Positions 3,001 through 62,815 of a stretch of 64,000 nt of DNA are shown here, one piece after another. The notes beneath the pieces were generated by a model. That model was given only the letters and a program-made list of their open reading frames with translations, did no database searches and was not told the DNA's origin. The stretch spans positions 157,542,001 through 157,606,000 of the forward strand of contig NC_091469.1 in NCBI RefSeq assembly GCF_036971445.1, in the 5' to 3' direction. The translations under genes were made by a program, and so were the position numbers. The stretch comes from Narcine bancroftii. Its lineage: Eukaryota. Position 1 is the stretch's first letter. Every line of letters begins with the position of its first letter.

Positions 3001-4600
3001 ACAGTCCCAGCACCGATACCTGAGGCCACACCACTAGTCACAGGCCTCCAGTCTGAGAAGCAATCATCCACCACTACTCTCTGGCTTCTCCCAACCAGCC
3101 ATTGTCAAATCCATTTCACTACTTCACCATGAATATCTAGCGTCTGGACCTTCTTGGCTAACCTCCCATGTGGGACCTTGTCAAAAGCCTTACTAAAGTC
3201 CAAATAGACAACATTCACAGCCTTTCCTTCGTCATCTTTCTTGGTAACCTCCTCAAAAAACTCTACAAGATTGGTTAAACATGACCTACCACGCACAAAG
3301 CCAAGTTGACTATCCCGAATCAGTTTATGGTTATCCAAATAATTGTGCATCCAATCTCTAAGAGCACCTTTCAATAACTGACCTATGAATGATGTCAGGC
3401 TCACTGGCCAATAATTTGCTGGGTTACTGTTGGAGCCTTTTTTAGACAGCAGAACTTGGCTACCTCCAATCCTCCACATCTGTGGCTAAGGACATTTTAA
3501 ATATTTCTGTCAGAGCCATCGCAATTTCTACAGTAGCCTCTGTTGAGGTCCAAAGGAATATTTTGTCAGGTCCTGGGTACTTATCCACCCTTATTTGCTG
3601 TAAGACAGCAAGAACTTCCTCCTCCTCCTTAATTATGTAGGTTCCATGACCTCACTGCTTGCTTTCCTTACACCCCATTACTCTATTCCCATTTCCTGAG
3701 TAAATCTTGAAGAAAAAAAAAAATTAATATCTTCCCCATGTCTTTTGGCTCCATACAAAACTCTGATCTTCAAGGAGACCAATTTTGTCCCTTACTATCC
3801 TTTTCCTTTTAATATACCTGTAGAAACCCTTAGGATTTTCCTTCACATTGTCTGCCAAAGCAACCTCATGACTTCTTTTAGCCTTTCTAATTCCTTTGAG
3901 GTTTTTCTTGTTTTTATTTACACTCCTCAAGTACCTCATTTGCTCCATGTTGCCTATACCTGTTATATACCTCTCTTCTTCCAAATCAGATCCCCAATAT
4001 CGCTCAAAAGCCAAGGTTCCCTATGCCTGCTAACCTTGCCTTTAATCCTGACAGGAACACAAAAACTCTGTTCTTTCAAAATTTCACCTTTGAAGGTCCT
4101 CCACTTACCCCGCACATCCTTGCCTGAAAACAACATCCCAATCAGCACATGCTAGATCCTTTCTCATTCCCTCAAAATTTAGAATCTCATCTCCATACCT
4201 CCATAATGAACTTGAATCTAATGGCATTATGATCACTGGACCCAAAATTTTACCCTACACATACTTCTGTCACCTGTCCTGTCTTGTTCCCTAATATGAG
4301 ATCCAGTATTGCTCTCTCTCTCTAGTTGGTACCTCTAGATATTGATTTAGAAAACTTTCCTGAACACATTTGACAAACTCGAAGCCATCCAGCCCTTTTA
4401 CAGTATGGGGATCACAGTCAATATGTTGAAAGTTAAAATCTCCTACTATCACACCCTTATGTTTCCTGCATCTGTCTGCTATCTCGCTACAGATTTGCTC
4501 CTCCAATTCTCATTTGACTATTGGACAGTCATGGTCACACCTTTTTTCCCCGTTCCTCAACTCCACCCATATAGTCTCAGTAGATGAGCCATCTGGTTTC
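1..4600 (-). mobile_element. Older degenerate CR1 LINE, split by the 137-2951 insertion (pieces 1-136 and 2952-~4600)
   Basis: Minus-strand ORFs 3105-3479 (LDFSKAFDKVPH), 3724-4014 and 4291-4506 (VGDFN). The RT sequence reads through once the insert is removed. Confidence 0.88.
137..2951 (+). mobile_element. 5'-truncated CR1 LINE (APE endonuclease + RT, frameshifted)
   Basis: ORFs 356-745 (GVYYRPP, MGDFN, SDH endonuclease motifs), 1103-1693 (KSPGPD, RPVSLTS) and 1874-2872 (GVPQGS, FADD). Tail (TATGGTTA)n. Flanked by TAATTTG at 130-136 and 2952-2958. Confidence 0.95.
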
Positions 4601-4719
4601 TCCTGCTGTGATATTTTCCCTGAGGAGCAATGCTATACCTACCCCCCCCCCATCACCATCCCCCCCCACCCCTTCCTATCGCGTCTTGACAAGCATCTAA
4701 TTTTCCCTCTCTCCCACCA

Positions 4720-6010
4720 TGTACCTACGTAGGTTCTTTTGAATGTTCTGTTTGTTCCAGCCTCCACCACCATCCCTGGCAATGCATTCCAGGCACCCTC
4801 CACTGTAGAAAAACTAATGTTTCCCTTAAACTTTTCTCCACTCACTTTAAACAGATATCCCCTGTTATCTACTATTGTCGCCCCCAGGAAAAGGGTGGCT
4901 ATCCACCCTATCTACGCCGTTCCTAATCTTATACACCTCTATTAAGTCACCTCTCATCCTTTATTGCTCCAAAGAGAAAAGCTCTATCAAACTTGCCTCA
5001 TGTGACATGTTCTCCAAATCCAGGCAACATCCTGGTCAATCTCCTCTGCACCCTCTCCAGAGCTTCCATATGCTTCCTATAATGAGGAAACCAGAACTGA
5101 ACATCCTCCCAACTTCTCTTGAATCTAATGAAATTCATCGTTTTAGCAAACAAAATAGACATTAAATGACCTAAATGAACTTAAGGCATTCCAGCACAGT
5201 GCAGGCCCTTCAGCTCACAATGATTGACGAGTTTTAAGAAAAGATTGAATAGCTAGGTGGATGGGAGAGATTATGGAACGGGAGCAGATCAGTGGGACTA
5301 GTGGAGTGGTGGTCGGCACAGACCAGAAGGGCCAAATGGCCTGTTTCCTGTGCTGTAGTATTCTATGGTTCTATATAAACTGCTCCACAATAATCTAATC
5401 TTTCCCCACCTGACACCCATAACCCTCTATTTTTCTTCCATCCATGTGCCTGCCTAAGAGTCTTTTAAATGTCCTAATTGTACCAGCCTCCAACTCCACC
5501 ACAGGCAATGCATTCCAGGCACCCACCACCATTCAATAAAAAAAGTTACCTCTGATGTCTCCCCTAAACCTCCCTCCACTCACCTTTAACCAATATCCTC
5601 TGGTGTTTGATATTGACGCCCCACGACAACGTTGCTGGCTGTCCACCCTATCTATACCCCTCAATCATATATACCTCCATTAAGTCACCTCCATTCCTTC
5701 ATTGCTCCAATCGTTACCTGTTCAGTCACAGCCCGACAGCTTATGGGAAGCACAGATAAATCTCCACCATAATTTTCCAAGCATGTGGAAAGAGAAAAGG
5801 GTCAAGGTATTATTCGGGGGAACTTCTTCACGCAGAGAGTGGAGGGAGTGCGAACGAACTGCCAGCTGAATTAGTAAATGCAGTCCCAATTTTGACATTC
5901 AAGAACCATTTGGACAGGTACATGGATGGGAGTCCTGTGCAAATCAGTGGGACGAGGCAGAAAAATAGTTCTGCACAAAGTAGAAAGGCTGAAGGGCCTG
6001 TTTTAGTTCT
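4720..6010. mobile_element. Cluster of short CR1 3'-end fragments in both orientations
   Basis: Repeated GNFFTQR / WNALP-coding segments and CR1 3' UTR hairpin sequence (gggccgaagggcctgtt). Confidence 0.75.
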
Positions 6011-18580: not shown

Positions 18581-19302
18581 CAGACAGTCCCGAGTTATGA
18601 ACGAGATCCATTCCTATGTGTCTTTAAGTCAAATTTGTAGATAAGTCACAGCAGGTACATACAGTTTTTATTTAGCATCAGTTAGTCAAATGTTTGTCTT
18701 AGTACTGTAAAAAAAAATTTAAAAAACAGTTCTTAAAACAGTTTAGATCAGTCGTTCTCAACCTTTTTCTTTCCATTCACATCCCACTTTAAGTAATCCC
18801 TCTGCCATCATTGTTCTGTGATTAGTAAGGGATTGCTTAAGGAGGTCTGTGAGTCAGAAGAAAAAGTTTGAAAACCACTGTTTTAATCGTCCCTCATTGA
18901 CTCGTCATGTGCACCGTTTCATAACTCCAAAGGAAATGGGCCAATGACCATTTTTCTCAGCAGAATATTTCAGTAACAATTGGGTCTCGAGCAGTGATTC
19001 TCAACCTTCCCTTCCCACCCACATGCCACCTTAAGCAATCCCTTACTGATCACAGAGCACCGATGGCAGAGGGATGACTTAAAGTGGGATGTGAGTGGAA
19101 AGAAAAAGGTTAAGAACCACTGGTTTAGATTAAAAAAAGATCATGATTAAAAGTTATCGTGTACTCTTGTTCCATCGATGTCTTGCATACCGGAAGGGGC
19201 ATTCATGAGGGAACATTATGCGCAGGCACGAATTGGGGGCACAACTTGTTCGTAAGTACGAGCTGTCCGTAAGTTGGACGTTTGTAACCCAGGCGCTCCC
19301 TA
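18581..19302. mobile_element. Tc1/mariner (Tigger-like) non-autonomous element hosting a hAT MITE
   Basis: TA|CAGACAGTCCCGAGTTATGAAC at the left end; degenerate complement (GTTTGTAACCCAGGCGCTCCCTA|TA) at the right end. Confidence 0.6.
18749..19122. mobile_element. hAT MITE
   Basis: TIR CAGT(C/G)GTTCT(C/T)AACC, perfect 8-bp TSD GTTTAGAT, long internal inverted repeats. Confidence 0.9.
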
Positions 19303-24129: not shown

Positions 24130-24730
24130 GTTCCCAACCTTTTTCTATCCACTCACATGCCACTTTAAGTAATCTCTATGTCATCGGTGGTCTGTGATTA
24201 TGTGATGGTACAGCCACCAGACTGCCCGTTCCTGTCTGCATCCCTACCCGCCTACTGCAGGGAGCAACCCACTGTACCTGCAGAGAGGTAACCTGGGAGG
24301 CCGGCCCCTCACGCCAGCCCTTGTGGAGCACAGGGAGCCAGAAGGGGGACTGAACCTTGTGTACACATTTTAAGCTAATTAAAGCCTGGAGTGCAGTCTT
24401 TTGAAGTTCGTGCTTGTTTTGTCTGCATTGCAACTCACCACAGATTAGTAAGGGATTGTTTAAGATGATGTGTAAGTGGGAAGGGAAGGTGAGAACCACT
24501 GCTCTAGACCCAATTATTCCTGAAATAGTTTGCTTGAGAAAAATTCTCATTGGCCCATTTCCTTTGGAGTTACGAAACCCTGCACATAACGAGTCAATGA
24601 GGGACGATTAAAACAGTGGTTTTCAAACCTTTTCTTTCCACCCACATTCCAATCCCTTACTAATCACAGAGAACCTACGGCAGAGGGATTACTTAAAGTG
24701 GTATGTGAGTGGAAAGAAAAAGGTTGAGAA
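24130..24730. mobile_element. hAT MITE (same family as 18749-19122) interrupted by a solo LTR
   Basis: Shared internal sequence and caaccttttt...aaaaaggttgagaa ends. Confidence 0.8.
24201..24442 (+). mobile_element. Short solo LTR (242 bp)
   Basis: TGTGATG...CACCACA termini and 5-bp TSD GATTA. The MITE sequence resumes exactly after it. Confidence 0.85.
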
Positions 24731-50527: not shown

Positions 50528-52070
50528 TCACTGTGGGCAATATTGCTCCTCCTCTGTCAGCAAAGGGAATTGTCTCTTTGGAGCTAAAGCCGCATGGGGT
50601 GCCTGATGTACCGGGGGTGGCACTGACGATCTCTGGGGCTGGACCCAATGCTCATTTTGTGGTGGTCCATATCCCCTTCCCCCAGTGTCCCGAGGATCCC
50701 AAGCCAGGGGGCAGTCTCTCTTCCAGTGTCCTGGCTGACCGCATACAAAACATACGGCTGGTTGCATTCGTGGAGCACCCCGACCTCTCCCTCTTACTCG
50801 GAATCCCCCCCATTGGACCTCCCATTCTGGCCACATAGGTGGGACCCGGTGCCCAATATGGGGCCGGGTGCCAACTCATATTATTCCCTTGTGGTGGCTG
50901 CGTTGGCTGCTGAATCATCTGGTTCGCACCCTTTGAGGAAATCTTTTTTGCCTCGTTTGCCTTTTTTCTAGCCTCTTCCAATTGAAGCTTAAGGAGTTGC
51001 ACTTGTGCCGACTCCATAGTATGTTTGTCCTCCTTTTGCTTAGCCCTGTAACGTTTCATGTGATGGGTCAAATGTTTTTCCCATTGCTCACTCGAGCAGC
51101 CAGGAATATCAGGGTTATTCTCTAATGCCTCCCTAACTACAGCTGGCAGTCCACTCGTTACTGCAGCCCTAAAGAGTGTAGTCTGCAAGGGATCTGTGGC
51201 TGGGTGTACTCCTGCTTTATCAGTCCAACTCTCCTTACACTGACTCCAAAAGGTCAAGATCTCCTCATCCTCTGACTCCTTTTGTCGATTGTGAGGAGTG
51301 GGGGTGAGTGATCCTCTGACATTCCTACCGAGATGGCATTCTCAAGTGTCTGTTCTTGCTCTCTCTCATTTGTTTTTTCCAGTTGCATACTAGTTTCCCT
51401 TACTTTACATACATTCTGTATTTCCTTTGTTAACTCCTTCATTTCCTCCACCCTTTCCTGCATAACTCTCTTAAGTCTCTCCTTCGCCTCCTGGAGTTCG
51501 TGACCTGCTAATTCAGTGACATTCACTATTCCCTCATTTATCTGCATCACTGGCATCTGGGGAATAGGATAAGGTGGTGGCAATGTCTCTGGTAACTTTG
51601 GATATAGCAGGGCTGACGGCTTAACCTCCCCCGTTTTCTCCTTTATGATAGGGGTCCCTTTTTAATATTATGTTGAAGGTTCGCTTCCACAGCCATGCAA
51701 GCCAATGTGATAATGTGTAAATCTGCCCTTCTCTGTTCCTTCACTTCTCTCTGTTGTTTAAACCTTCTTCTATTCCATACAGATCCTTGTCCTTTTGCCT
51801 CATGTTCCTGTACCTCCTTGGCTGCTTCCCTCTCTGCTTCTCCTAAGTACAGTACCAGCCGGATTTTTTCAAACCCTCGTGGTACCTTCCCCTGACTCTG
51901 CAGCTCTCTCCATATCTGTTCGTACCGTGCCATAGCCTGTACCTCCTCTCCCTTCGGTAATCCTCCCAGTAATTGATTCCTTGTTTTTTCCCACTGTCAG
52001 TTTACAGATGGGGGAACTCCTCTGTCTCCCCCGAGCTCTTGCCCTACATCCCTATTTACTCCTTCCATCT
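50528..52070 (-). pseudogene. gag: ERV-C gag
   Basis: PPPY late domain and CFVCGQPGHWKRDC zinc knuckle; internal deletion near 51255. Confidence 0.85.
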
Positions 52071-52189
52071 CCGTTCTGATCTTTAACCCTTTAGACTTCG
52101 TACTTCACTGGGTCTCTCCCCTGGTAGGATTTTGACACCCTGCAATCTACTTCGTCCCTTCCCACGTTATTATAAACACCAGCAGCACA

Positions 52190-52490
52190 CTACACACGAT
52201 CCTTAAACAAATACTTATTATAAACTATTATGATACACTAGACGATTCCTAAACAGATACTTATCCACTATAGAAGCAAATAACTATAAAACAATACACC
52301 TTATACAGATACTGATTATACACTACTATGGTATACGATCCTTAATCAAATACTTATTACACACTATAAAAACAAATAACCATCACAATGCACCTTATAC
52401 AGATACTTATACACTACTATGGTACACGATCCTTAATCAAATACTTATTACACACTATAGAAGCAAATAACCATCACCATACACCTTATT
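52190..52490. repeat. Imperfect ~90-bp tandem repeat in the ERV-C leader
   Basis: About 3 copies of acactactatggtacacgatccttaatcaaatacttatt...caccttatacagatact. Confidence 0.8.
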
Positions 52491-52593
52491 CTAATTTGCC
52501 AAGTGTCTAAAGCTATCTCTCGAGATCGCTACGAGGGGACTCCAACCCCGTTCTACTAGGAGGACTCCAACCCCCTTTCTGCTAGGAGGACTC

Positions 52594-53281
52594 TGTTAGG
52601 AATTAAAGTACCTTTAAAGAAATTGCTCGAGACAAAAATTGAGAACAAAGAACATTTATTACTACAACAATGCAAAGTTGGGTGCTTCCCCTTACCCTGG
52701 GAATACACACACATACTGGGGCTCACCCAACTTTTATACAGTCAATTTCAGTATCAGAATGCCCTCCCCCTTACATTCTTCTGCCCCCTGGATGGGTTTG
52801 GCATAGGTAATTCTTCCTGCCTACGTGCAGTTTCAGTACACTTGGAGGACCAGGGGGTATCCTGTGGGTGCCCCATCATGTCATTGTCCTTATTCACACC
52901 TTCCTGATTCTCTGGGCTACAGTCTCTTGATATGCAGAGTTGACTCATTCTATCTAGGGTTGGCTAATTTCATATGTATAAATCTGTGTATGGTTAGCTA
53001 ATTAGAAATGTATGACTTGGTACTTCTGTCCAGGGCTAGGAGACCCTTATCTGATCCAGACTACCTCACTTCCTACATTCTATTGTACCTTACCATTCCT
53101 TATCTTAGTCCTATGGTCTTGTCACAAAGGCTAGAAGATTCTTATGTTAATCGTGCTGACTCTGCTTTCCTGCATCCTAAGCCCCAGGCTTATCCTGTTT
53201 GAACTGGTTTCAGCCATTTTACTGATGAACTTTAGTTTCTTCCATGTTCATAATTTTAGGTCAATTTTCCCATCTCTCACA
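52594..53281 (-). repeat. ERV-A 3' LTR
   Basis: TG...CA termini; PPT at 53282-53299; about 2 differences from the 5' LTR by eye. Confidence 0.97.
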
Positions 53282-53459
53282 ATCCTCACTTTTCTTTTAG
53301 ATCAGTAATACTGATCTTTCACCATGATCAGTGTTACTGATCTTTGGTTACTAGTGTCAGTGTGACTGATCCCCCCCCCCCCCTCTCCTCACTTTTCTTT
53401 TAGATCAGTAACACTGATCTTTCAAGTGTAAGGTGTAGTTTTACCCAGCTGGTCAATAA

Positions 53460-54245
53460 CCGAATTGTAATGTCTGTGTAAAGTCTTTAGGTAGGGGAGC
53501 ACCATGAAGGTCAGGGTAGTGAGTCCAGCTGCTTATTAGGGTTTGGAGTATCAGGCTCCAGTTCTCAGTAAAGAGTCTAGTCCATCCCATACGTTGAAAT
53601 ATTGAAGCAGTGTCTTTGAAGCATACGACCTTTGTAAGTGTTGTCCCGACGAAGTCTGTGAGAGACGCTGCCTTCAGCAGCGAACAAGTAGCAGTCTATG
53701 AGAAGCGCTGCCTTCAGCAGCGAACGAGTAGCAGTAGTCAGGCGGTTCCGTTTGATTGTGGCTCGTATCTGATGTCCTCTTCAGCCCCGAACCCTAGGGC
53801 CACCGATCTACGAGGGCTGTCTGGAGCCTGATATTAAAGTGTTAAGCAGCTCACATTGTTGGTAACTGGTGCTCCCTTTCATGGGGTGATGAAAAGTGAC
53901 CAAGCTGGGGGGGATTGTTTCTTGTGGTTTAACTGTGTGTTGCCGCTTGTCTGCTAACATTAGCATATGTATCATCTCTCTCTCTCTCTGCTACATGTAC
54001 AATCCTGACTACCATTCCGTCTGTCTTTGTCCCACCATGTCCTTTGTGCTATCGCCTCAAAACTCTTGTCTCTAATACCTGTGTAGGCTATGATACAAAT
54101 TAGATGTACTCCACTAAAGCTGTTTAATTCCCCTGGTCCGTATTGGGATCCCTTATATCCCATTATGACTATACATTAAATCTATGCCCTGTCTACATTC
54201 TAAAGGAGCTGAATTGTAACCTCTGCTGCCCCTATTCCAGGGGGG
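53460..54245 (-). pseudogene. env: ERV-A degenerate env remnant
   Basis: Collinear similarity to ERV-B 42000-42970, including a duplicated LLAAEGS-coding segment at 53665-53730. No long ORF. Confidence 0.7.
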
Positions 54246-54297
54246 CTTAAAACATTAACGAACAATATTCCAAAGAAATTAGTAAACAACAATGAAC

Positions 54298-54654
54298 AAT
54301 ACATGTAAAGCTCATTAAAAAAAAACAGCAATAAAAGACAACAAGAACTGAATTAACCACAATAAATGTAAAGCTCATTGAAAACAGCATTAAAATACAA
54401 TAAGAACTGAATAAAACCACAATAAATGTAAAGCTCATTGAAAACCGCAATAAAATACAATAAGAACTGAATAAAACCACAATAAATGTAAAGCTCATTG
54501 AAAACAGCATTAAAATACAATAAGAACTGAATAAAACCACAATAAATGTAAAGCTCATTGAAAACAGCATTAAAATACAATAAGAACTGAATAAAACCAC
54601 AATAAATGTAAAGCTCATTGAAAACTGCAATAAAATACAAAAATAACTGAATAA
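54298..54654. repeat. 60-bp tandem repeat (~6 units) just downstream of ERV-A pol
   Basis: Unit aataaatgtaaagctcattgaaaacagcattaaaatacaataagaactgaataaaaccac at 54361, 54421, 54481, 54541 and 54601 (partial), plus one diverged unit. Confidence 0.95.
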
Positions 54655-54672
54655 TCAAAAAAACAAGTAACA

Positions 54673-57600
54673 TTACGGCACTTTGTCACGGCGCAGTGTA
54701 AGTTTCAGGTCTGATGGATGAGGAACTGCACGCCAGGTTGGGGTTTGAATCTGTGTGTCGTGGTGTTGTGGTTCAGAAGCTGGTTTAACCCTTTGAATGT
54801 GGGTCCAGCCTTTCTCTCTTGTTCTTACTGCGGTGTCTGTAATTAAAAGTACACAGAAGGGACCATCCCAGGCAGGTTTTAGTTGATCTTCTTGCCATGC
54901 TTTTACATAAACCCAATCACCAGGTTTAATAGAATGTATAGGAAAGTCTAAGGGTGGTGTTTGGGCTAAGAGTCCTTTTTGCTTTAAATCTTGGATGGAA
55001 GTAGAAAGTCCTCGTAAAAATTTAGAAATGTATTGGTCATTAGCTTCAGGAATGGGAGAATCAGTGTGATATCCCATAAATGGGAGTCCAAACATCATCT
55101 CATACGGTGAGACTGCGAGGTCTTTACGAGGTGCTGTCCTAATTCTAATCAGCGCTAACGGCAATGATTTAATCCAGGACAGACCAGTCTCTTCATGAAG
55201 TCGAGTGAGTTGGAGTTTCAATGTTTGATTCATACGCTCGACTCGCCCCGAACTTTGGGGATGCCATGGGGTATGTAGTTGCCATTCTATTCCTAAGCTC
55301 TTGCAGACACCCTGTAGAATCTTAGAGGTGAAATGCGTACCTCTATCTGAATCAATGGTCTGCATCATACCGTATCGTGGAATGACACATTCAATAAGTA
55401 TTCGGATGACAGTGTTGGCACGATCATTCGGGGTAGGAAAAGCTTCAACCCATCTTGTGAAATGATCAACCATGACAAGGAGAAATTTGTAAATGCCAGT
55501 CTTAGGAAGTTCAGTAAAGTCTATTTGTATGCGCTGGAACGGGCGAACGGCAATGTCGCGACCGCCAGGTATTACTTGGCGCATCGATTTCTTATTAACC
55601 CTTTGACAAATGGGACAAGATCGAGTAGCAGATTTAGTAATATTGTATATGCCAAGGCAGTGAAGGGAACGTGTAAAAGCATCTATAAGGGACTGGGTTC
55701 CCCAATGTGTTTGTTGATGTAACTGATCTATGATTTGGCGGGCTATGGCTTTGTTAATAACTTGCCGTCCGTCTACTGTCCACCACAACCCGTCGGCAGT
55801 CTGGCAAAATCCCTGATCTCTCATTGCAACCTCTTCTTCCCGTGTAAAGATGGGATTCTTTTTAATCTCTATTGGCGTGGGTAGTAGCTGGTATAAATGA
55901 ATCTTTTCTGCTAATGCCGCCTGTTTGGCAGCTGCATCAGCCTGCCTGTTTCCTCTAGCTTCAGGACTGTTACCAGTCTGATGTCCACGCACATGTACAA
56001 TGGCAATATCGGACGGGAGTGCTAAAGCCTCCAGGGATTGGGTGATTAACTGTTCGTGAGCTAACTTTTGTCCTTTGCCAGTTATCATCCCTCTTTCCTT
56101 CCATATCTTACCGAAGGTGTGGACTACCCCAAAAGCATATTTAGAATCAGTGTAGATCGTTCCTACCTTGTTTTCTAGTTCGTGGAGTGCTCTACAGAGG
56201 GCATATAACTCACAGGATTGTGCTGACCAATGGCCGGGGAGGCGACCAGCTTCGATCACAAGTTCCTGTTTACCGTCCACTACGCTATACCCGCTATAGC
56301 GGGTACCTGCAATACAACGTGAAGAACCATCAATAAACAGTTTTTCCCCTTCAGTTAAAGGGACATCGGTTAGGTCTTCCCTAATTTTTGTTTGTAAGTC
56401 GATAACCTCTGAGCACGAATGTTCTAAACTGTCCAAAGGCTGGTCATTAGCTGGGGAGATGAGGAATGCTGCTGGGTTGAGAGTTTTGGTTGTAATTAAG
56501 GTCAAATCATTGCTGTCCATTAATATCGTTTCGTATTTTAGGATTCTCGAATCCGTGAGCCACCTTCCAGCCCGCTGTAATAGAATATTGCGGACTGTAT
56601 GAGGGGTATGCACTGTCATAGGGGCACCGAAAGTAATCTTTCGTCCTTCCTCCACCAAAATTGCAGTGGCTGCGACGGCTTGTATACATTCTGGCCAGCC
56701 GCGACAAACGGGGTCTAAAAGCTTTGACAGGAAAGCCACTGGTTGTCTATAGCCAGCCTTGCTCTCTGTGAGCACGCCGGTGGCTGTTCCAGCTTTGGTA
56801 TTAGTGTACAAATCAAAGGTTTTGTTTAGATCTGGCAACGCTAAAACTGGGGCACTCGTTAGGCATCGTTTAACAAAGTTGAATTTTTCAATCTCTTCAT
56901 CCGTCCAGTCAAGGGTTTGGGGTGTTATACTGGAAATCTTATCATAAAGAAATTTGACCAGAATCGAATAATTCTCTATCCATATTCTACAGAATCCCAC
57001 TAACCCAAGGAATTTCCTGAGTTCTTGAGTATTTTTGGGAGGGGGGATCTGTATAATACCAGTTATTCTTTCTGGGCTAATTTTCCTGGTTCCTTGACTA
57101 ACTAGATGACCTAAGTATTTGACCTCAGTTTGCACAAATTGTAATTTAGACTCACTGACTCTCAGACCTTTCTTCTCCAGAAAGTTTAAAAGTGCCACTG
57201 TAAAATCTTTAGCTAATTCCTGTGTTCTTGCAGTAATTAGCAAGTCATCCACATACTGTATGAGTTGGCAATTTTCTATCTTAGGAGCTTCATCTAGTAC
57301 CCGCTCTAAGACTTGACCAAATAAATTGGGCGATTCGGTAAAGCCTTGGGGAAGGACTGTCCACCGGTATTGGTTTTTACGGCCAGTAAAGGGGTTCTCC
57401 CATTCAAAGGCGAACATGTCTCTGCTTTCTGTGGCCAATGGACAAGTCCAGAATGCATCCTTTAAATCAATGACACTAAACCATTGATTATGGGGGTCAA
57501 TTTTACTCATGATGGTATACGGGTTGGGTACAACCGGGTGACGGGCAAGAATGAATTTGTTAAGCTCCCTCATGTCCTGTACTAGGCGGTAAGTGCCGTC

Positions 57601-58221
57601 TGGCTTTTGAACAGGTAAAATCGGGGTATTAAAGGGAGACATACAGGGTTCGAGTATACCGTCTTGAATCAACTGGTCAATTACGGGCTGTAAGCCTTTC
57701 CGGCCGGCTATCGGAATTGGGTACTGTTTCTGTCTAACAATTCGTTGAGGATCTTTTAGCGTGACTTGTAGCGGAGGAATATCAAGGATTCCTCTATTTC
57801 CCTTCCCTGCCCATACTCTTGGATTTATTAGTTTGCGATCTTCTTCGTTTAAAACATAGAATTGAACTCCAATGCCTGATTGTAGAGGTCGAGTACCGAT
57901 AGCCAATTGGTCCTGTAGATCCCTCCCTAGCAAGCATACTCCGGCTTGGGGAAGTAATAGAAGATCCTCAGTTATGATCTTATCTCCCATTTGAATACTG
58001 ACTTCTCGCAATACTGGGACTGGAAAGTCTCTACCTCCTACCCCAGAAACTGTGACTGTCCCTTCTATTTTCACCCCCTTCGGTTGGTATAGAACGCTAG
58101 ATCGGGCAGCTCCAGAATCGACCAGAAATGTCATCTTATCCCTGTGAGGTCCTATGCATAAATTAACTAACGGTTCTCCTTGCAGCCCCACGGTATGTAT
58201 TAATTGAGAACCGTGACCCCC
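54673..58221 (-). CDS. pol: ERV-A Pol (PR-RT-RNase H-IN), expressed by readthrough of the gag UAG
   Basis: Open frame with FLVDSGA, LPQG, YVDD, FIDGS, YTDS, HHCC, D-D-E (IDFT, IDSDRG, VERMN) and WDGPF. In frame with gag across a single TAG. Confidence 0.96.
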   Translation of the reverse strand, partial: GGHGSQLIHTVGLQGEPLVNLCIGPHRDKMTFLVDSGAARSSVLYQPKGVKIEGTVTVSGVGGRDFPVPVLREVSIQMGDKIITEDLLLLPQAGVCLLGRDLQDQLAIGTRPLQSGIGVQFYVLNEEDRKLINPRVWAGKGNRGILDIPPLQVTLKDPQRIVRQKQYPIPIAGRKGLQPVIDQLIQDGILEPCMSPFNTPILPVQKPDGTYRLVQDMRELNKFILARHPVVPNPYTIMSKIDPHNQWFSVIDLKDAFWTCPLATESRDMFAFEWENPFTGRKNQYRWTVLPQGFTESPNLFGQVLERVLDEAPKIENCQLIQYVDDLLITARTQELAKDFTVALLNFLEKKGLRVSESKLQFVQTEVKYLGHLVSQGTRKISPERITGIIQIPPPKNTQELRKFLGLVGFCRIWIENYSILVKFLYDKISSITPQTLDWTDEEIEKFNFVKRCLTSAPVLALPDLNKTFDLYTNTKAGTATGVLTESKAGYRQPVAFLSKLLDPVCRGWPECIQAVAATAILVEEGRKITFGAPMTVHTPHTVRNILLQRAGRWLTDSRILKYETILMDSNDLTLITTKTLNPAAFLISPANDQPLDSLEHSCSEVIDLQTKIREDLTDVPLTEGEKLFIDGSSRCIAGTRYSGYSVVDGKQELVIEAGRLPGHWSAQSCELYALCRALHELENKVGTIYTDSKYAFGVVHTFGKIWKERGMITGKGQKLAHEQLITQSLEALALPSDIAIVHVRGHQTGNSPEARGNRQADAAAKQAALAEKIHLYQLLPTPIEIKKNPIFTREEEVAMRDQGFCQTADGLWWTVDGRQVINKAIARQIIDQLHQQTHWGTQSLIDAFTRSLHCLGIYNITKSATRSCPICQRVNKKSMRQVIPGGRDIAVRPFQRIQIDFTELPKTGIYKFLLVMVDHFTRWVEAFPTPNDRANTVIRILIECVIPRYGMMQTIDSDRGTHFTSKILQGVCKSLGIEWQLHTPWHPQSSGRVERMNQTLKLQLTRLHEETGLSWIKSLPLALIRIRTAPRKDLAVSPYEMMFGLPFMGYHTDSPIPEANDQYISKFLRGLSTSIQDLKQKGLLAQTPPLDFPIHSIKPGDWVYVKAWQEDQLKPAWDGPFCVLLITDTAVRTREKGWTHIQRVKPASEPQHHDTQIQTPTWRAVPHPSDLKLTLRRDKVP

Positions 58222-59886
58222 CTATTCGTGATCAGCTTCCATCAAGGCATAGGAACGTGTGTCCATTGCTCGCAGTGGGCATTCCTTTTTAAAGTGCCCT
58301 TCCTTTTTACAATGAAAACAAATGAGGGGTCCCGTTTCCCAATCTTTCCCAAAATTTCTAGGGGGTATACGTCGTCCCCGGAATCCTCCTCTACTCCTCC
58401 ATCTGCTGGGGTCTCCACCTCCCCACCCTTGGCTCCCCTCTTTTTGGTGGTGGTCAGCTACTATTCCTTTAACTGTCTGTAATAGAATTTTAGCTTTCCC
58501 TTTTTGTTTATCCTCTGCCCTCTGTACAAATGCTCTCTGAGCAATCTGTAGTAACTGAGTAATTCCTTGCTCATGCCAATTTTCTGTCTTTTGTAACTTT
58601 CTTCGGATGTCTGGGGCTGAGTTGGTAACGAAACCCGTTAGAACCAATTGTTCCCCTGCTGGGGATTCTATGTCGAGACCCCCGTATTGCTGAATTGCCG
58701 TGCGCAGTCGATTGAGAAATGCAGAGGGGGTCTCCTCAGGACCTTGGGGAACCTCAAAGGCTTTTTTAAAGTTCTGTCCTTTGGGGACAGAATCCTTGAT
58801 TCCTCTGATCAAATTTATCCTATACTCCTCCATCAGTGTGCGGCCAGCACTGGTATTTTTGTCCCAATTAGGTTTTGTGAGAGGGAATTTGGCTTCTCCA
58901 GGGATCGCCTCGTGTCCCCCTTGGTGTTCCTTATCCCATGCTTTAATGCCTGCCTGTCGGATCATTCCCCGCTCATCTAAGGTAAACAAGGTTTTAAAAA
59001 TGGCTGTTAATTCCTCCCAAGTATACAAATTTGGTCCCAAAAATTGGTCTAACTGTTCGGCACATCCCTGGGGATCTTCTATCAGGGAGATTAATTCTTT
59101 CTTAAAATTACGTACTTCAGTGCTGGTCAGGGGCACATTTACGAACCCAAGACCTTCTCCTACGGGAACCTCCCGTAGGGGTCGCATCCAGCTAATTTCT
59201 GGTTTCTTTGATTTGTTTTCCTGTTCCCTGAGGAATACATCGCAAGGTTCTGCCACTTCTTCCTGAGGGGTCTCACGCTGTTCGGAGTAACAATGCTCTA
59301 CCTCTACTGTTAACGGGGGTGGTAATCGAGCGCTTTGTGAGCGAGTCACCATACCACTCCGGTTCTCCTCTCTCTTCTCTAGTGGTATGGGAGGAGGAGG
59401 GGGAGGTGCAGAAGGGTAGGCAATAGGAGGGGGAGGAAAGATAGGAGTTGGCATAGGAGGAACATAGGGTGGAGGGAGGGAATGTAACACATCCCAACCC
59501 TGTGGTTCAGGGACAAGAGGTTCCTCCTCTCTCTTATTCCTGAATTCTTTCTCATTCAAAACCAGCTGTTCAATGGATCCCTTGAGCCAGCAGGCTGCAT
59601 ATTCCCTGATCTCAACATTGTCTGGCTGGTTTTGATAGAGCCATAAGTTCAAAGCTTCACACATCCATTCATCCTCGGATCCGAATTTTGGCCAGTACAC
59701 GGAGCTCCCTTTAACCGGGTATCTCACCCATTCATTACAACAATACCTGACCATCGTCAGTTTGTCTTTACCGCGGGTCTTTCCTGTGCCCCACTCAGAT
59801 AACATCAACCCAAGCGGGCTGTACGTAGCTATCTGGTGGTCACGTCCTGTGTCAGGACTCTCATCTCTACTGCCCGCTATTCCCAT
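58222..59886 (-). CDS. gag: ERV-A Gag
   Basis: MG start (possible myristoylation), PPPY and PSAP late domains, MHR QGPEETPSAFLNRL, single CFHCKKEGHFKKEC knuckle, TAG stop. Confidence 0.96.
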   Translation of the reverse strand: MGIAGSRDESPDTGRDHQIATYSPLGLMLSEWGTGKTRGKDKLTMVRYCCNEWVRYPVKGSSVYWPKFGSEDEWMCEALNLWLYQNQPDNVEIREYAACWLKGSIEQLVLNEKEFRNKREEEPLVPEPQGWDVLHSLPPPYVPPMPTPIFPPPPIAYPSAPPPPPPIPLEKREENRSGMVTRSQSARLPPPLTVEVEHCYSEQRETPQEEVAEPCDVFLREQENKSKKPEISWMRPLREVPVGEGLGFVNVPLTSTEVRNFKKELISLIEDPQGCAEQLDQFLGPNLYTWEELTAIFKTLFTLDERGMIRQAGIKAWDKEHQGGHEAIPGEAKFPLTKPNWDKNTSAGRTLMEEYRINLIRGIKDSVPKGQNFKKAFEVPQGPEETPSAFLNRLRTAIQQYGGLDIESPAGEQLVLTGFVTNSAPDIRRKLQKTENWHEQGITQLLQIAQRAFVQRAEDKQKGKAKILLQTVKGIVADHHQKEGSQGWGGGDPSRWRSRGGFRGRRIPPRNFGKDWETGPLICFHCKKEGHFKKECPLRAMDTRSYALMEADHE

Positions 59887-59906
59887 GCTTAGGAACAAGT
59901 AAAATA

Positions 59907-59916
59907 CTCTTACCGA
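59907..59916 (-). promoter_or_regulatory. Probable major splice donor in the ERV-A leader
   Basis: TCG|GTAAGAG just upstream of the gag ATG; conserved in ERV-B near 63960. Confidence 0.6.
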
Positions 59917-60090
59917 GTTCTGGCAGTACTGCTCTAGCGCGCGTCCTTCCGCCGTTTGTTCTCAATGCCTCTTCTCGGATATCACTCGCTTCTTCCACTG
60001 ACCAGCCACCCGTCGCCCGTGAGTCCAGCTGAATCAGCCGGGGTGCACCTACTCTCGTCGTCGGGGCACTCTGTCAGTGGAGGGAGTGTG

Positions 60091-60108
60091 ATCCCGGACG
60101 AGCCCCCA
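60091..60108 (-). promoter_or_regulatory. Primer-binding site, tRNA-Pro
   Basis: TGGGGGCTCGTCCGGGAT, 2 nt from the 5' LTR; the canonical tRNA-Pro PBS. Confidence 0.97.
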
Positions 60109-60110
60109 TT

Positions 60111-60798
60111 TGTTAGGAATTAAAGTACCTTTAAAGAAATTGCTCGAGACAAAAATTGAGAACAAAGAACATTTATTACTACAACAATGCAAAGTTGGGT
60201 GCTTCCCCTTACCCTGGGAATACACACACATACTGGGGCTCACCCAACTTTTATACAGTCAATTTCAGTATCAGAATGCCCTCCCCCTTACATTCTTCTG
60301 CCCCCTGGATGGGTTTGGCATAGGTAATTCTTCCTGCCTACGTGCAGTTTCAGTACACTTGGAGGACCAGGGGGTATCCTGTGGGTGCCCCATCATGTCA
60401 TTGTCCTTATTCACACCTTCCTGATTCTCTGGGCTACAGTCTCTTGATATGCAGAGTTGACTCATTCTATCTAGGGTTGGCTAATTTCATATGTATAAAT
60501 CTGTGTATGGTTAGCTAATTAGAAATGTATGACTTGGTACTTCTGTCCAGGGCTAGGAGACCCTTATCTGATCCAGACTACCTCACTTCCTACATTCTAT
60601 TGTACCTTACCATTCCTTATCTTAGTCCTATGGTCTTGTCACAAAGGCTAGAAGATTCTTATGTTAATCGTGCTGACTCTGCTTTCCTGCATCCTAAGCC
60701 CCAAGCTTATCCTGTTTGAACTGGTTTCAGCCATTTTACTGATGAACTTTAGTTTCTTCCATGTTCACAATTTTAGGTCAATTTTCCCATCTCTCACA
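60111..60798 (-). repeat. ERV-A 5' LTR
   Basis: TG...CA termini; TATAAAA near 60250 and AATAAA at 60172-60177 on the minus strand. Confidence 0.97.
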
Positions 60799-60963
60799 AC
60801 TCCAACCCCCTTTTACTACAGGGGACTCCAACCCCATTCTACTAGGAGGACTCCAACCCCCTTCTACTACAGGGGACTCCAACCCCGTTCTACTAGGAGG
60901 ACTCCAACCCCCTTCTACTACAGGGGACTCCAACCCCGTTCTACTAGGGGGACTCCAACCCCC
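60799..60963. repeat. 51-bp tandem repeat of the ERV-C leader (continues at 52535-52593)
   Basis: Unit ggggactccaaccccgttctactaggaggactccaacccccttctactaca, split by the ERV-A insertion. Confidence 0.9.
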
Positions 60964-61158
60964 TTTTGTTTTATTCTTTGGCTTTAACGAGGGCTTTTGC
61001 AGAGTAGTGACAACACACAATTTATCTTTGCCAATAGCAGAACTTCGTTAAAACAGGCGTCTGCTTACCTCCCTTTGTAGGATGGTCACTTGTTGTTATC
61101 ACCACACCACAATCGACCGGTGTTTCGTATCTTTTTCTTCCGTCACTTCTCCATCTTC

Positions 61159-61176
61159 ATCACGTCGGGGTCACCA
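61159..61176 (-). promoter_or_regulatory. Primer-binding site, tRNA-Trp
   Basis: TGGTGACCCCGACGTGAT, 3 nt from the ERV-C 5' LTR; matches the tRNA-Trp PBS known from avian leukosis viruses. Confidence 0.93.
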
Positions 61177-61179
61177 AAT

Positions 61180-61949
61180 TGTCGGACTCTGGCTTTAACT
61201 TACTCTTAATTTAGTCTATGTGTGGTCTGAGTCCAGCGCGTTCTTTGAATGAAGTGATAGGAGAAGGTATTCGGTTCAACAGTCAATTTATTACACAGCA
61301 CAAGAATAAAACTTAACAGAGCTCTGGGTCAGTCATTAGTTCATAGGTCACCTGCACAGTGAGCTACTCCCCAAGACTGACCCCTATTGTCCAGTTGGCT
61401 CAGTTTATATAGGTCAACCTTATCATACAGAACAAAAGTTGGCTTCCTTTGCTAGATCTTTTTGCATAAGGGTTATCACAAGTCATCTCCTGTTTTGCAG
61501 ATATCTGGGGTGTAGCACTCCCATCTTAATCCTCCAGGCCAGACTATCCTGTTGAGTTGATCAGAAATTAATTCATCCCCAGATATTTCTAATCACCATT
61601 CTGTTCTTGTCTGGCCAATTTCTGCTGTTCTCTTTAACACCTCCTCCTGCCTTAATCTTCCTCCTAGACTGGTTTTCCATTCCCTTTGTTTCTTGCAGGC
61701 CATTCTTTGTTCTGATCTGGCCTGTGTCTCCTGTGCTACTCACCACCTCCTTTAGTTTGAGCATTCCTCCTAAATCGTTTTATGCATTTCCTCTCCCTGT
61801 ATTTGGGAGCAGACAATTTTGCTCAGCCAACTTTGCTCCATGCTGTGATTGCCACTTAATCACATTCCTTTTTCCCTGAACCATGCAGTAAATATACACT
61901 TATTAATTAATCATTTATTTCATACTGTTTTAACCCCTAGATTCCAACA
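61180..61949 (-). repeat. ERV-C 5' LTR (770 bp)
   Basis: TG...CA termini; pairs with 45648-46419. Confidence 0.95.
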
Positions 61950-62025
61950 GTCTCCGTGCAGCCTCACGGTGTGTATTGACTGAGAACCGTGACCCCCCCC
62001 CCCCCCTTCATAATCTGCTTCCATC

Positions 62026-62815
62026 TGTCGGACTCTGACTTTACCCTACCCTTAATTTAGTCTATGTGTCGTCTGAGTCCAGCGTATTCATTAAATGAAG
62101 TGATAGGAGAATCAGTTTATTACACAGCATAAGAATAAAGCTTACAGAGCTCTCGTTCAGTCGTTAGTTCATAGGTCACCTGCACAGTGAGCTATTCCCC
62201 AAGATTGACCTCTACTGTCCAGTCTCTACAGTTTATATAGCTCAACCTTATCATTCAGAACAAAAGTTGGCTTCCTTTGCTAGATTTCTTGCTTAAGATT
62301 TATCACAAGTAATTTCCTACTCTGCAGTTATCTGGGGTGGAGAGCTCCCATCTTAATCCTCAAGGTCAGAATATCCTGTTGTTTTGATCAGAAATCAATT
62401 CATACCCCAGATATTTCTAATTATTTCTTTGTTCTCATCTGGCCATATTCTTCTGTTCTACTCAACACCTCCTTCTGTCTTAGCCTTCTTACTGATTCCA
62501 TTCTCTTTGTTTCTGACAGTCTCTGTCAGATTCTTTTTGTTTGTGCTAATCAACACCTCCTTTTGCCTTAACCTTCCTACTAAATTGTTTCATACATATC
62601 CTCTCTTTTGTATCTTGGGAACAGACAATTCTAAACCTACTGTAATCAGCCAACTTTGCTACATACTGTGGCTGCCCCTTACATTACTCTTTCCCTTCAC
62701 CATGAGGTAAATATTAAATTGTTACATAGTACTGAATTCATGTATACAAACTGAATAGTACATAAGCATATATTCTACATATTTTCTATGATTAATTAAC
62801 CCCTATATTCCAACA
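62026..62815 (-). mobile_element. Solo LTR (790 bp) of an ERV-C-related subfamily
   Basis: TGTCGGAC...TTCCAACA termini and perfect 4-bp TSD CATC. ERV-B gag resumes on both sides. Confidence 0.93.

Follow-up and report, generated by a model that had tools for sequence, protein, structure and literature searches.

Introduction

Most known cases of env loss with subsequent mass amplification come from mammals, and the mechanism was established in mouse elements of class II with a changed Gag N-terminus. MusD/ETn and IAP both belong to class II; MusD has lost myristoylation, and IAP carries an ER signal. Megafamilies of endogenous retroviruses (ERVs) without env are described in PMC4102558, and the intracellularisation of IAP and MusD is reported to have accompanied a change at the N-terminus of Gag (PMC2791754). 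MusD also carries a 412-base transport element (PMC11379458, PMC5767303). For a cattle ERV that also had an intact env, the presence of a myristoylation site was taken to indicate reinfection (PMC10924933).

The provirus described here, a member of what we call family A, lies in a 64,000-nucleotide stretch of the Narcine bancroftii genome, analysed as a whole and referred to as the window. One genome here holds an env-bearing sister family, several env-deleted descendants that have one lesion in common, and a young pair of helper and partner, all in class I and in a cartilaginous fish; such a natural series makes it possible to ask whether a retrovirus without env has to abandon budding or can keep it. 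Among papers accessible without subscription we found no description of family A, nor of any retrovirus of this ray genus, nor of an env-less helper with a larger partner in this host group and virus class; the supplements of PMC12287698 (13 cartilaginous fish) and 10.1101/2021.11.23.469661 may list it.

Results

Structure and insertion site of the provirus

The provirus measures 8,205 bp and occupies positions 60798 down to 52594 of the window, on the minus strand. It has two TG...CA LTRs, a target-site duplication (TSD), a primer-binding site (PBS), a polypurine tract (PPT) and the order gag-pro-pol with RT, RNase H and integrase, and is thus an ERV. Its features, in the order of transcription, are:

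60111-60798, minus: 5' LTR, 688 bp, TG...CA, with TATAA at LTR position 544 and AATAAA at 622
60091-60108, minus: PBS of what we take, from MLV, to be the tRNA-Pro type, following the 5' LTR after AA
59887-60090, minus: leader, in which a GGTAAG near 59909-59914 resembles a splice donor
58222-59886, minus: gag, 554 aa open from ATG, with an MGIAGS start and an acidic N-terminus, ending in a TAG read-through codon
54673-58221, minus: pro-pol, 1,182 aa open, with protease, RT, RNase H and integrase motifs
54296-54654, minus: U-rich tandem array, 359 bp, 5.9 units of 60 bp, at the former position of the env signal peptide; absent from ERV-B
53450-54290, minus: env relic, about 0.84 kb, SU N-terminus and TM pieces with internal deletions and frameshifts
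53282-53410, minus: hairpin block, about 130 bp, with duplicated PPT and G run; absent from ERV-B
52594-53281, minus: 3' LTR, 688 bp, differing from the 5' LTR at 2 positions
52590-52593 (left) and 60799-60802 (right), no strand: TSD ACTC, within a 26-bp minisatellite that belongs to ERV-C, the host element

Alignment of the LTRs gave exactly 2 mismatches in 688 positions, both transitions, which agrees with the count made by eye in the first-pass annotation. The same annotation had called the TSD perfect. As ACTC falls in a minisatellite, its chance repetition is conceivable; at locus L154, however, a second copy of the host element has the paralogous site empty and with ACTC only once, and the repeat is therefore a true 4-bp TSD. 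The PPT adjoins the 3' LTR on its upstream side (functional copy ~53283-53298), and an identical PBS is found in the env-bearing sister family E1. The provirus is inserted in the leader of ERV-C, itself inserted in ERV-B. Its own flank is multi-copy.

The surroundings (window 38290-64000) form a dense nested ERV cluster with three nested proviruses and further LTRs at 38290-38751 and 62026-62724; a CR1-type LINE lies between two B-type LTRs within it. Four copies of a MITE-like self-complementary repeat family (370-390 bp) occupy 18739-19127, 24443-24730, 27004-27377 and 35116-35482 of the window.

Coding capacity and classification

gag and pol share one frame and are joined through a single TAG. 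Gag combines its MG start with PPPY (138), PSAP (158), an MLV-like capsid and one CCHC finger, so that the N-terminus and the two late domains noticed earlier are indeed retained. In Pol we found DSGA, LPQG, YVDD, the RNase H D/D pair, HHCC and the integrase D-D-E, assigned by what we take to be the standard catalytic patterns; PBS, PPT, Gag and the Pol motifs are all present, as had been claimed. Pfam matches were Gag_p30, zf-CCHC, RVT_1, RNase_H, rve and MLVIN_C, and the best matches among solved structures were MLV-type RT and MLV-type capsid. The closest named Gag proteins bear the label of the electric ray Narcine bancroftii (92% and 79% over 56%), followed by sharks, rays and birds, and the named relatives of the RT are bird and rattlesnake ERV proteins.

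With an MLV-type RT and capsid, a single gag-pol frame through a stop codon, and a relic of gamma-type env ancestry, family A is by its sequence features a class I, gamma-like ERV. In the RT tree it groups with proteins of a stingray and a rattlesnake and one unnamed protein (SH-aLRT 90), near bird ERVs and far from family E2; this suggests a place within the gamma-containing (Jin) clade rather than the epsilon-like (Mu) one, in a tree that held no named gamma or epsilon virus. One survey, which sampled three cartilaginous fish, has the gamma-containing clade infecting only amniotes (PMC6001957).

Copy number, integrity and age

Exact 22-mer counts over the genome gave 84 pol-bearing copies, 871 copies of the insert of a non-autonomous partner (described below) and 2,229 LTRs, with 0 for reversed controls; the counts include copies on small scaffolds that repeat chromosomal loci. 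At eight near-identical loci (L166-L170, L175-L177) one family A copy is interrupted, each time at an identical position, by a partner copy in inverted orientation; these loci were amplified by segmental duplication or are repeated scaffolds, and the counts are therefore inflated. Eighty family loci that resembled the relic, LTR or RT were sampled (59 pol-bearing, 20 partners and 1 solo LTR), a sample that leans young. LTR pairs were obtained from 63 loci, and the median number of mismatches was 2 in the 44 two-LTR full-length copies (window copy included) and 0 in the 20 partners. Such low divergence throughout the family, together with an own 4-bp TSD in 55 of the 63 two-LTR copies, rules out assembly collapse as the cause of LTR identity.

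One possible explanation for this fresh appearance is recent extinction, namely that the copies look young only because cartilaginous-fish genomes mutate slowly. It concerns timing alone, is compatible with either of the mechanisms discussed below, and in our judgement falls a little short of an even chance. At the shark rate of 7e-10 per base per generation (PMC10587355), which comes from another species, the window copy would be ~2.1 million generations old (0.25-7.5), identical LTRs would be compatible with up to 3.8 million, and the 20 partners would average 0.47 million; moreover gag or pol is broken in 30 of the 44 full-length copies, with both frames open in the other 14. Against extinction, no LTR mismatch at all was seen in 12/20 partners and 7/44 full-length copies, and two-LTR elements account for all but at most ~300 of the 2,229 LTRs, so that few copies have collapsed to solo LTRs. 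Activity of family A today is possible, although in slow-clock genomes near-identical LTRs are no proof of it, and the description of this copy as 'very recent' was overstated, two differences amounting to some two million generations.

Among the contigs of other sequencing runs that carry the family there was no RNA record for expression or splicing, and one long joint lacked splice ends. Presence in a second species was considered and put down to possible carry-over: near-identical pieces occurred in one run of another organism and in none of two runs of the same sample. A third organism holds near-identical family pieces at a depth of ~5, treated in the same way.

A non-autonomous partner

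The first-pass annotation did not include a large non-autonomous partner, which could not be seen from the window. This element (5.5-7.0 kb) consists of family A LTRs, PBS, leader, gag as far as early capsid, an insert of ~1.45 kb, and then the array, relic and PPT block. It has no pol, and the insert in its place is AT-rich, non-coding and non-viral (at locus L058, ~4290-5790). Helper and partner stand at ~9:91 (84 versus 871), the partner being about tenfold more numerous. The partner copies are young and have their own TSDs, and they share LTRs, PBS, packaging region and 3' end with family A, by which they are likely mobilised through borrowed enzymes. The truncated gag frame is open in 13/20 partners, and the hairpin block is kept in all 20. 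As to the source of the insert, we found no notable ORF in it, matches in the window only to its ends, and no host flank in contigs, and a genome search was swamped by partner copies; it could be captured host DNA. In some subfamilies (L055, L057, L033, L049) a 40-residue N-terminal block of the partner Gag is repeated in frame two to three times. One partner copy (L031) lies ~16 kb beyond the window.

The region between pol and the 3' LTR

The interval from the pol stop to the 3' LTR is 1.39 kb, and only part of it is env. The earlier view of env as a deleted relic holds, since what remains is ~0.84 kb of frameshifted SU and TM remnants, with a 40-bp duplication at 53653-53735; the env region of ERV-B, likewise said to be shortened, is ~1.13 kb long and collinear with it. 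The hairpin block is unusually stable (z -4.8; 0/200 shuffles equally stable). No known RNA family matched at gathering level in the provirus or in the partner.

A hydrophobic ORF in the array was considered as a protein and rejected: counted from the former env start codon, the frame extends over 106 codons here and over 0-54 in other copies, where units are mostly of 59 bp. Unit spacing in full-length copies is 59 bp in 121/140 cases, and because most units elsewhere have this length the array is non-coding.

Inherited deletions in env

The sister family E1, whose gag-pol is ~73% identical to that of family A, has an env of 599 aa with a TLV_coat domain, to which the relic aligns. A junction from env base 741 to 1219 was present in 17/17 mapped B loci (20 were fetched and three left out of mapping), in the ERV-B of the window and in 20/20 further B/D-type loci; these loci were found by relic queries, and the set favours deleted forms. 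The 741-1219 deletion takes out the furin site and the fusion peptide. The junction also fits family A, which has three smaller deletions in common with B, two of which hit the cysteines of CXXC and CX6CC, motifs that presumably play their usual roles in Env. A and B thus have four deletions at the same places. The deleted middle of env was detected in 0/80 family A loci and in 20/20 env-bearing controls, with 9 of the 59 pol-bearing loci ending or breaking before the env region, and among the fetched family loci no env-bearing A-type pol was found. None of the family copies examined has a full env, and we conclude that env was lost family-wide through inherited lesions.

Env-bearing families reside in the same genome. 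E1 is young (LTR pairs up to 99.7% identical), its R-U5 is 82-91% alike to that of A, and of 73 matches scored ~20 were close, which sets a lower bound on its copies. E2 is also young, with many open env frames of 596 aa. ERV-C (window 45647-61955) is a member of E2, and like L151-L160 it has an RT 42% identical to that of A, a pol of 1,376 aa and a different PBS, which we take to be the tRNA-Trp type. The E2 env is 62% identical to that of E1 despite the distant RT, and an env swap between these distant backbones is likely. In older env-deleted families (L181-L230) many copies keep an open frame of 350-390 aa with signal peptide and anchor; a functional mini-Env in these B/D copies was rejected, with dN/dS of ~1.

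Selection and phylogeny

Comparison of A with B and D gave dN/dS of 0.03-0.10 for RT (dS near saturation for D) and 0.13-0.26 for Gag. For the env relic the values were 0.72-1.01 over 15 pairs, with 1 inside the interval in 14, and an intact env pair gave 0.16. Variants common to at least four A copies had pN/pS of 0.12 in pol and 0.25 in gag and included no stops, whereas singletons included 23. Purifying selection thus acted on gag and pol and not on env, meaning that every lineage depended on the Gag-Pol that it encoded itself but not on its own Env; the proposal that the lineage kept copying after env loss is upheld by this result.

The first-pass annotation had further placed env loss before the A/B split. 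The Gag tree agrees, nesting A on a long branch within the env-deleted clade (100/100) with env-bearing E1 outside (one D row also falls outside, likely through mixed mapping), and so does the shared 3' end. The Pol trees do not bear it out: with whole Pol the order of A, B, D and E1 is not settled, and the test neither rejects a grouping of A+B+D (p-AU 0.49) nor prefers it.

An additional scenario is therefore that A is a recombinant, with pol from a lineage that split off before the env deletion and was possibly infectious, and an env-deleted 3' end and LTR acquired later from a B-like element. We regard this as improbable. The best whole-Pol tree does set A outside B+D+E1 (support 53), and the divergence between A and B at four-fold sites is 0.84-1.13 in PR-RT-RNase H, with 0.57-0.70 in integrase and 0.44-0.83 in gag, as against only 0.21-0.27 over the relic and 0.24 in U3. 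Between B and D, however, the relic likewise lags behind RT (0.21-0.23 versus 0.49-0.55), so that constraint or alignment bias explains part of the difference; A+B+D is not rejected, the Gag tree holds A firmly inside the env-deleted clade, and an env-bearing A-type pol is missing from the loci fetched. A recombinant origin would make the env-less history of A shorter than its long branch suggests, a consequence that we consider equally doubtful. Overall the divergence of the relic is 2-4 times slower than that of synonymous sites, which may reflect either RNA-level constraint or a 3' end swapped into A later.

The Gag N-terminus and budding signals

Among the 44 full-length A copies, Gly2/Ser6 is kept in 37, PPPY in 41 and PSAP in 44. 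Where A has YPSAP, E1 has YPSL, and one late-domain-type motif appears to have been exchanged for another (motif classes in PMC4798954). The net charge of the first 24 Gag residues, counted by hand, is +2 to +4 in E1, +2, -1 or -2 in B/D and -2 in A. The shift is modest, as one B subfamily is still at +2 and one unrelated Gag reaches -3; it is weakly suggestive of a retargeting of Gag like that in the mouse elements. The last 25 codons of the leader are in frame with gag, contain a short hydrophobic run and are open in 34/44 full-length and 20/20 partner copies. This might be an upstream Gag extension like that of IAP, a weak lead, as it has no ATG and is stopped in one subfamily.

Discussion

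We slightly favour the view that family A has been copied in the germ line by its own Gag-Pol, independently of Env, and that it likely also mobilises the non-autonomous partner. This reading is built on structure, copy numbers, the shared env deletions, and selection on gag and pol with none on the env frame. In such a cycle the LTR would drive one genomic RNA, and Gag, with Gag-Pol made by read-through of the TAG, would assemble on a membrane by way of the myristoyl site and PPPY/PSAP. With the basic patch lost, the plasma membrane would no longer be the favoured site of assembly. Reverse transcription would be primed at the PBS and PPT, integrase would yield the 4-bp TSDs, and the helper would package the partner RNA in trans; the U-rich array, hairpin block and relic may act as RNA signals and not as a gene. 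Points that speak against Env-independent copying are the retention of Gly2/Ser6, PPPY and PSAP, the coexistence of young E1 and E2, and the whole-Pol tree, which does not put A inside the env-deleted clade.

Env might instead be supplied in trans, family A budding normally and reinfecting germ cells with Env from E1 or E2. Selection on gag and pol would then reflect cis preference, with Env a borrowed public good. The myristoyl site and both late domains have been conserved since env was lost, the env-intact families are young and co-resident, and a gamma-like ERV of canids whose copies share an env deletion is a documented case of trans-complementation (PMC6407205). Set against this, A and its partner (~950 copies) far outnumber the E1 matches, the basic N-terminal charge of Gag has been lost, and the canid element shares gag/pol lesions among its copies, whereas no stop is common to four or more A copies. 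We find this route rather unlikely, and less likely than copying without Env.

A third route without Env can also be drawn, although we would give it little credence. A gamma-like clade of cartilaginous fish would have lost env once and radiated into several families, in which myristoylation and ESCRT-dependent budding persisted but, once the basic patch of the matrix was lost, operated at internal membranes; what was left of env would have been recycled as an RNA signal, and family A would drive the tenfold larger partner population, which would make a capsid-truncated Gag.

Returning to the favoured reading of Env-independent copying, the closest parallels are MusD/ETn and IAP, with which family A shares env loss, selection on gag-pol, high copy number, an altered Gag N-terminus and a non-autonomous partner with a swapped centre (PMC2791754, PMC10924933). 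It differs from them in being class I and gamma-like, in its cartilaginous-fish host, and in keeping Gly2/Ser6 and two late domains. The cattle ERVK[2-1-LTR] C/D and koala KoRV/recKoRV pairs likewise combine a competent minority with a defective majority (15:85 in cattle, ~9:91 here) that shares LTRs and flanks and has its centre replaced (PMC10924933); the competent cattle type is env-intact, whereas the helper here is env-less and the 1.45-kb insert has no recognised source. The canid CfERV-Fc1(a) resembles family A in its gamma-like nature, PPPY, N-terminal Gly and shared env deletion, but its young copies have env and share gag/pol lesions (PMC6407205), while no examined family A copy has env and the shared gag/pol variants are mostly synonymous. 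With MLV and the class I ERVs of birds and snakes, family A has in common the Gag_p30 capsid, the in-frame TAG read-through, MLVIN_C and, for bird and rattlesnake, 55-66% identity in RT, and it differs in having a cartilaginous fish as host. By analogy with these systems, the best reading is that an env-less helper and a tenfold larger partner population would work here like MusD/ETn or the cattle C/D pair.
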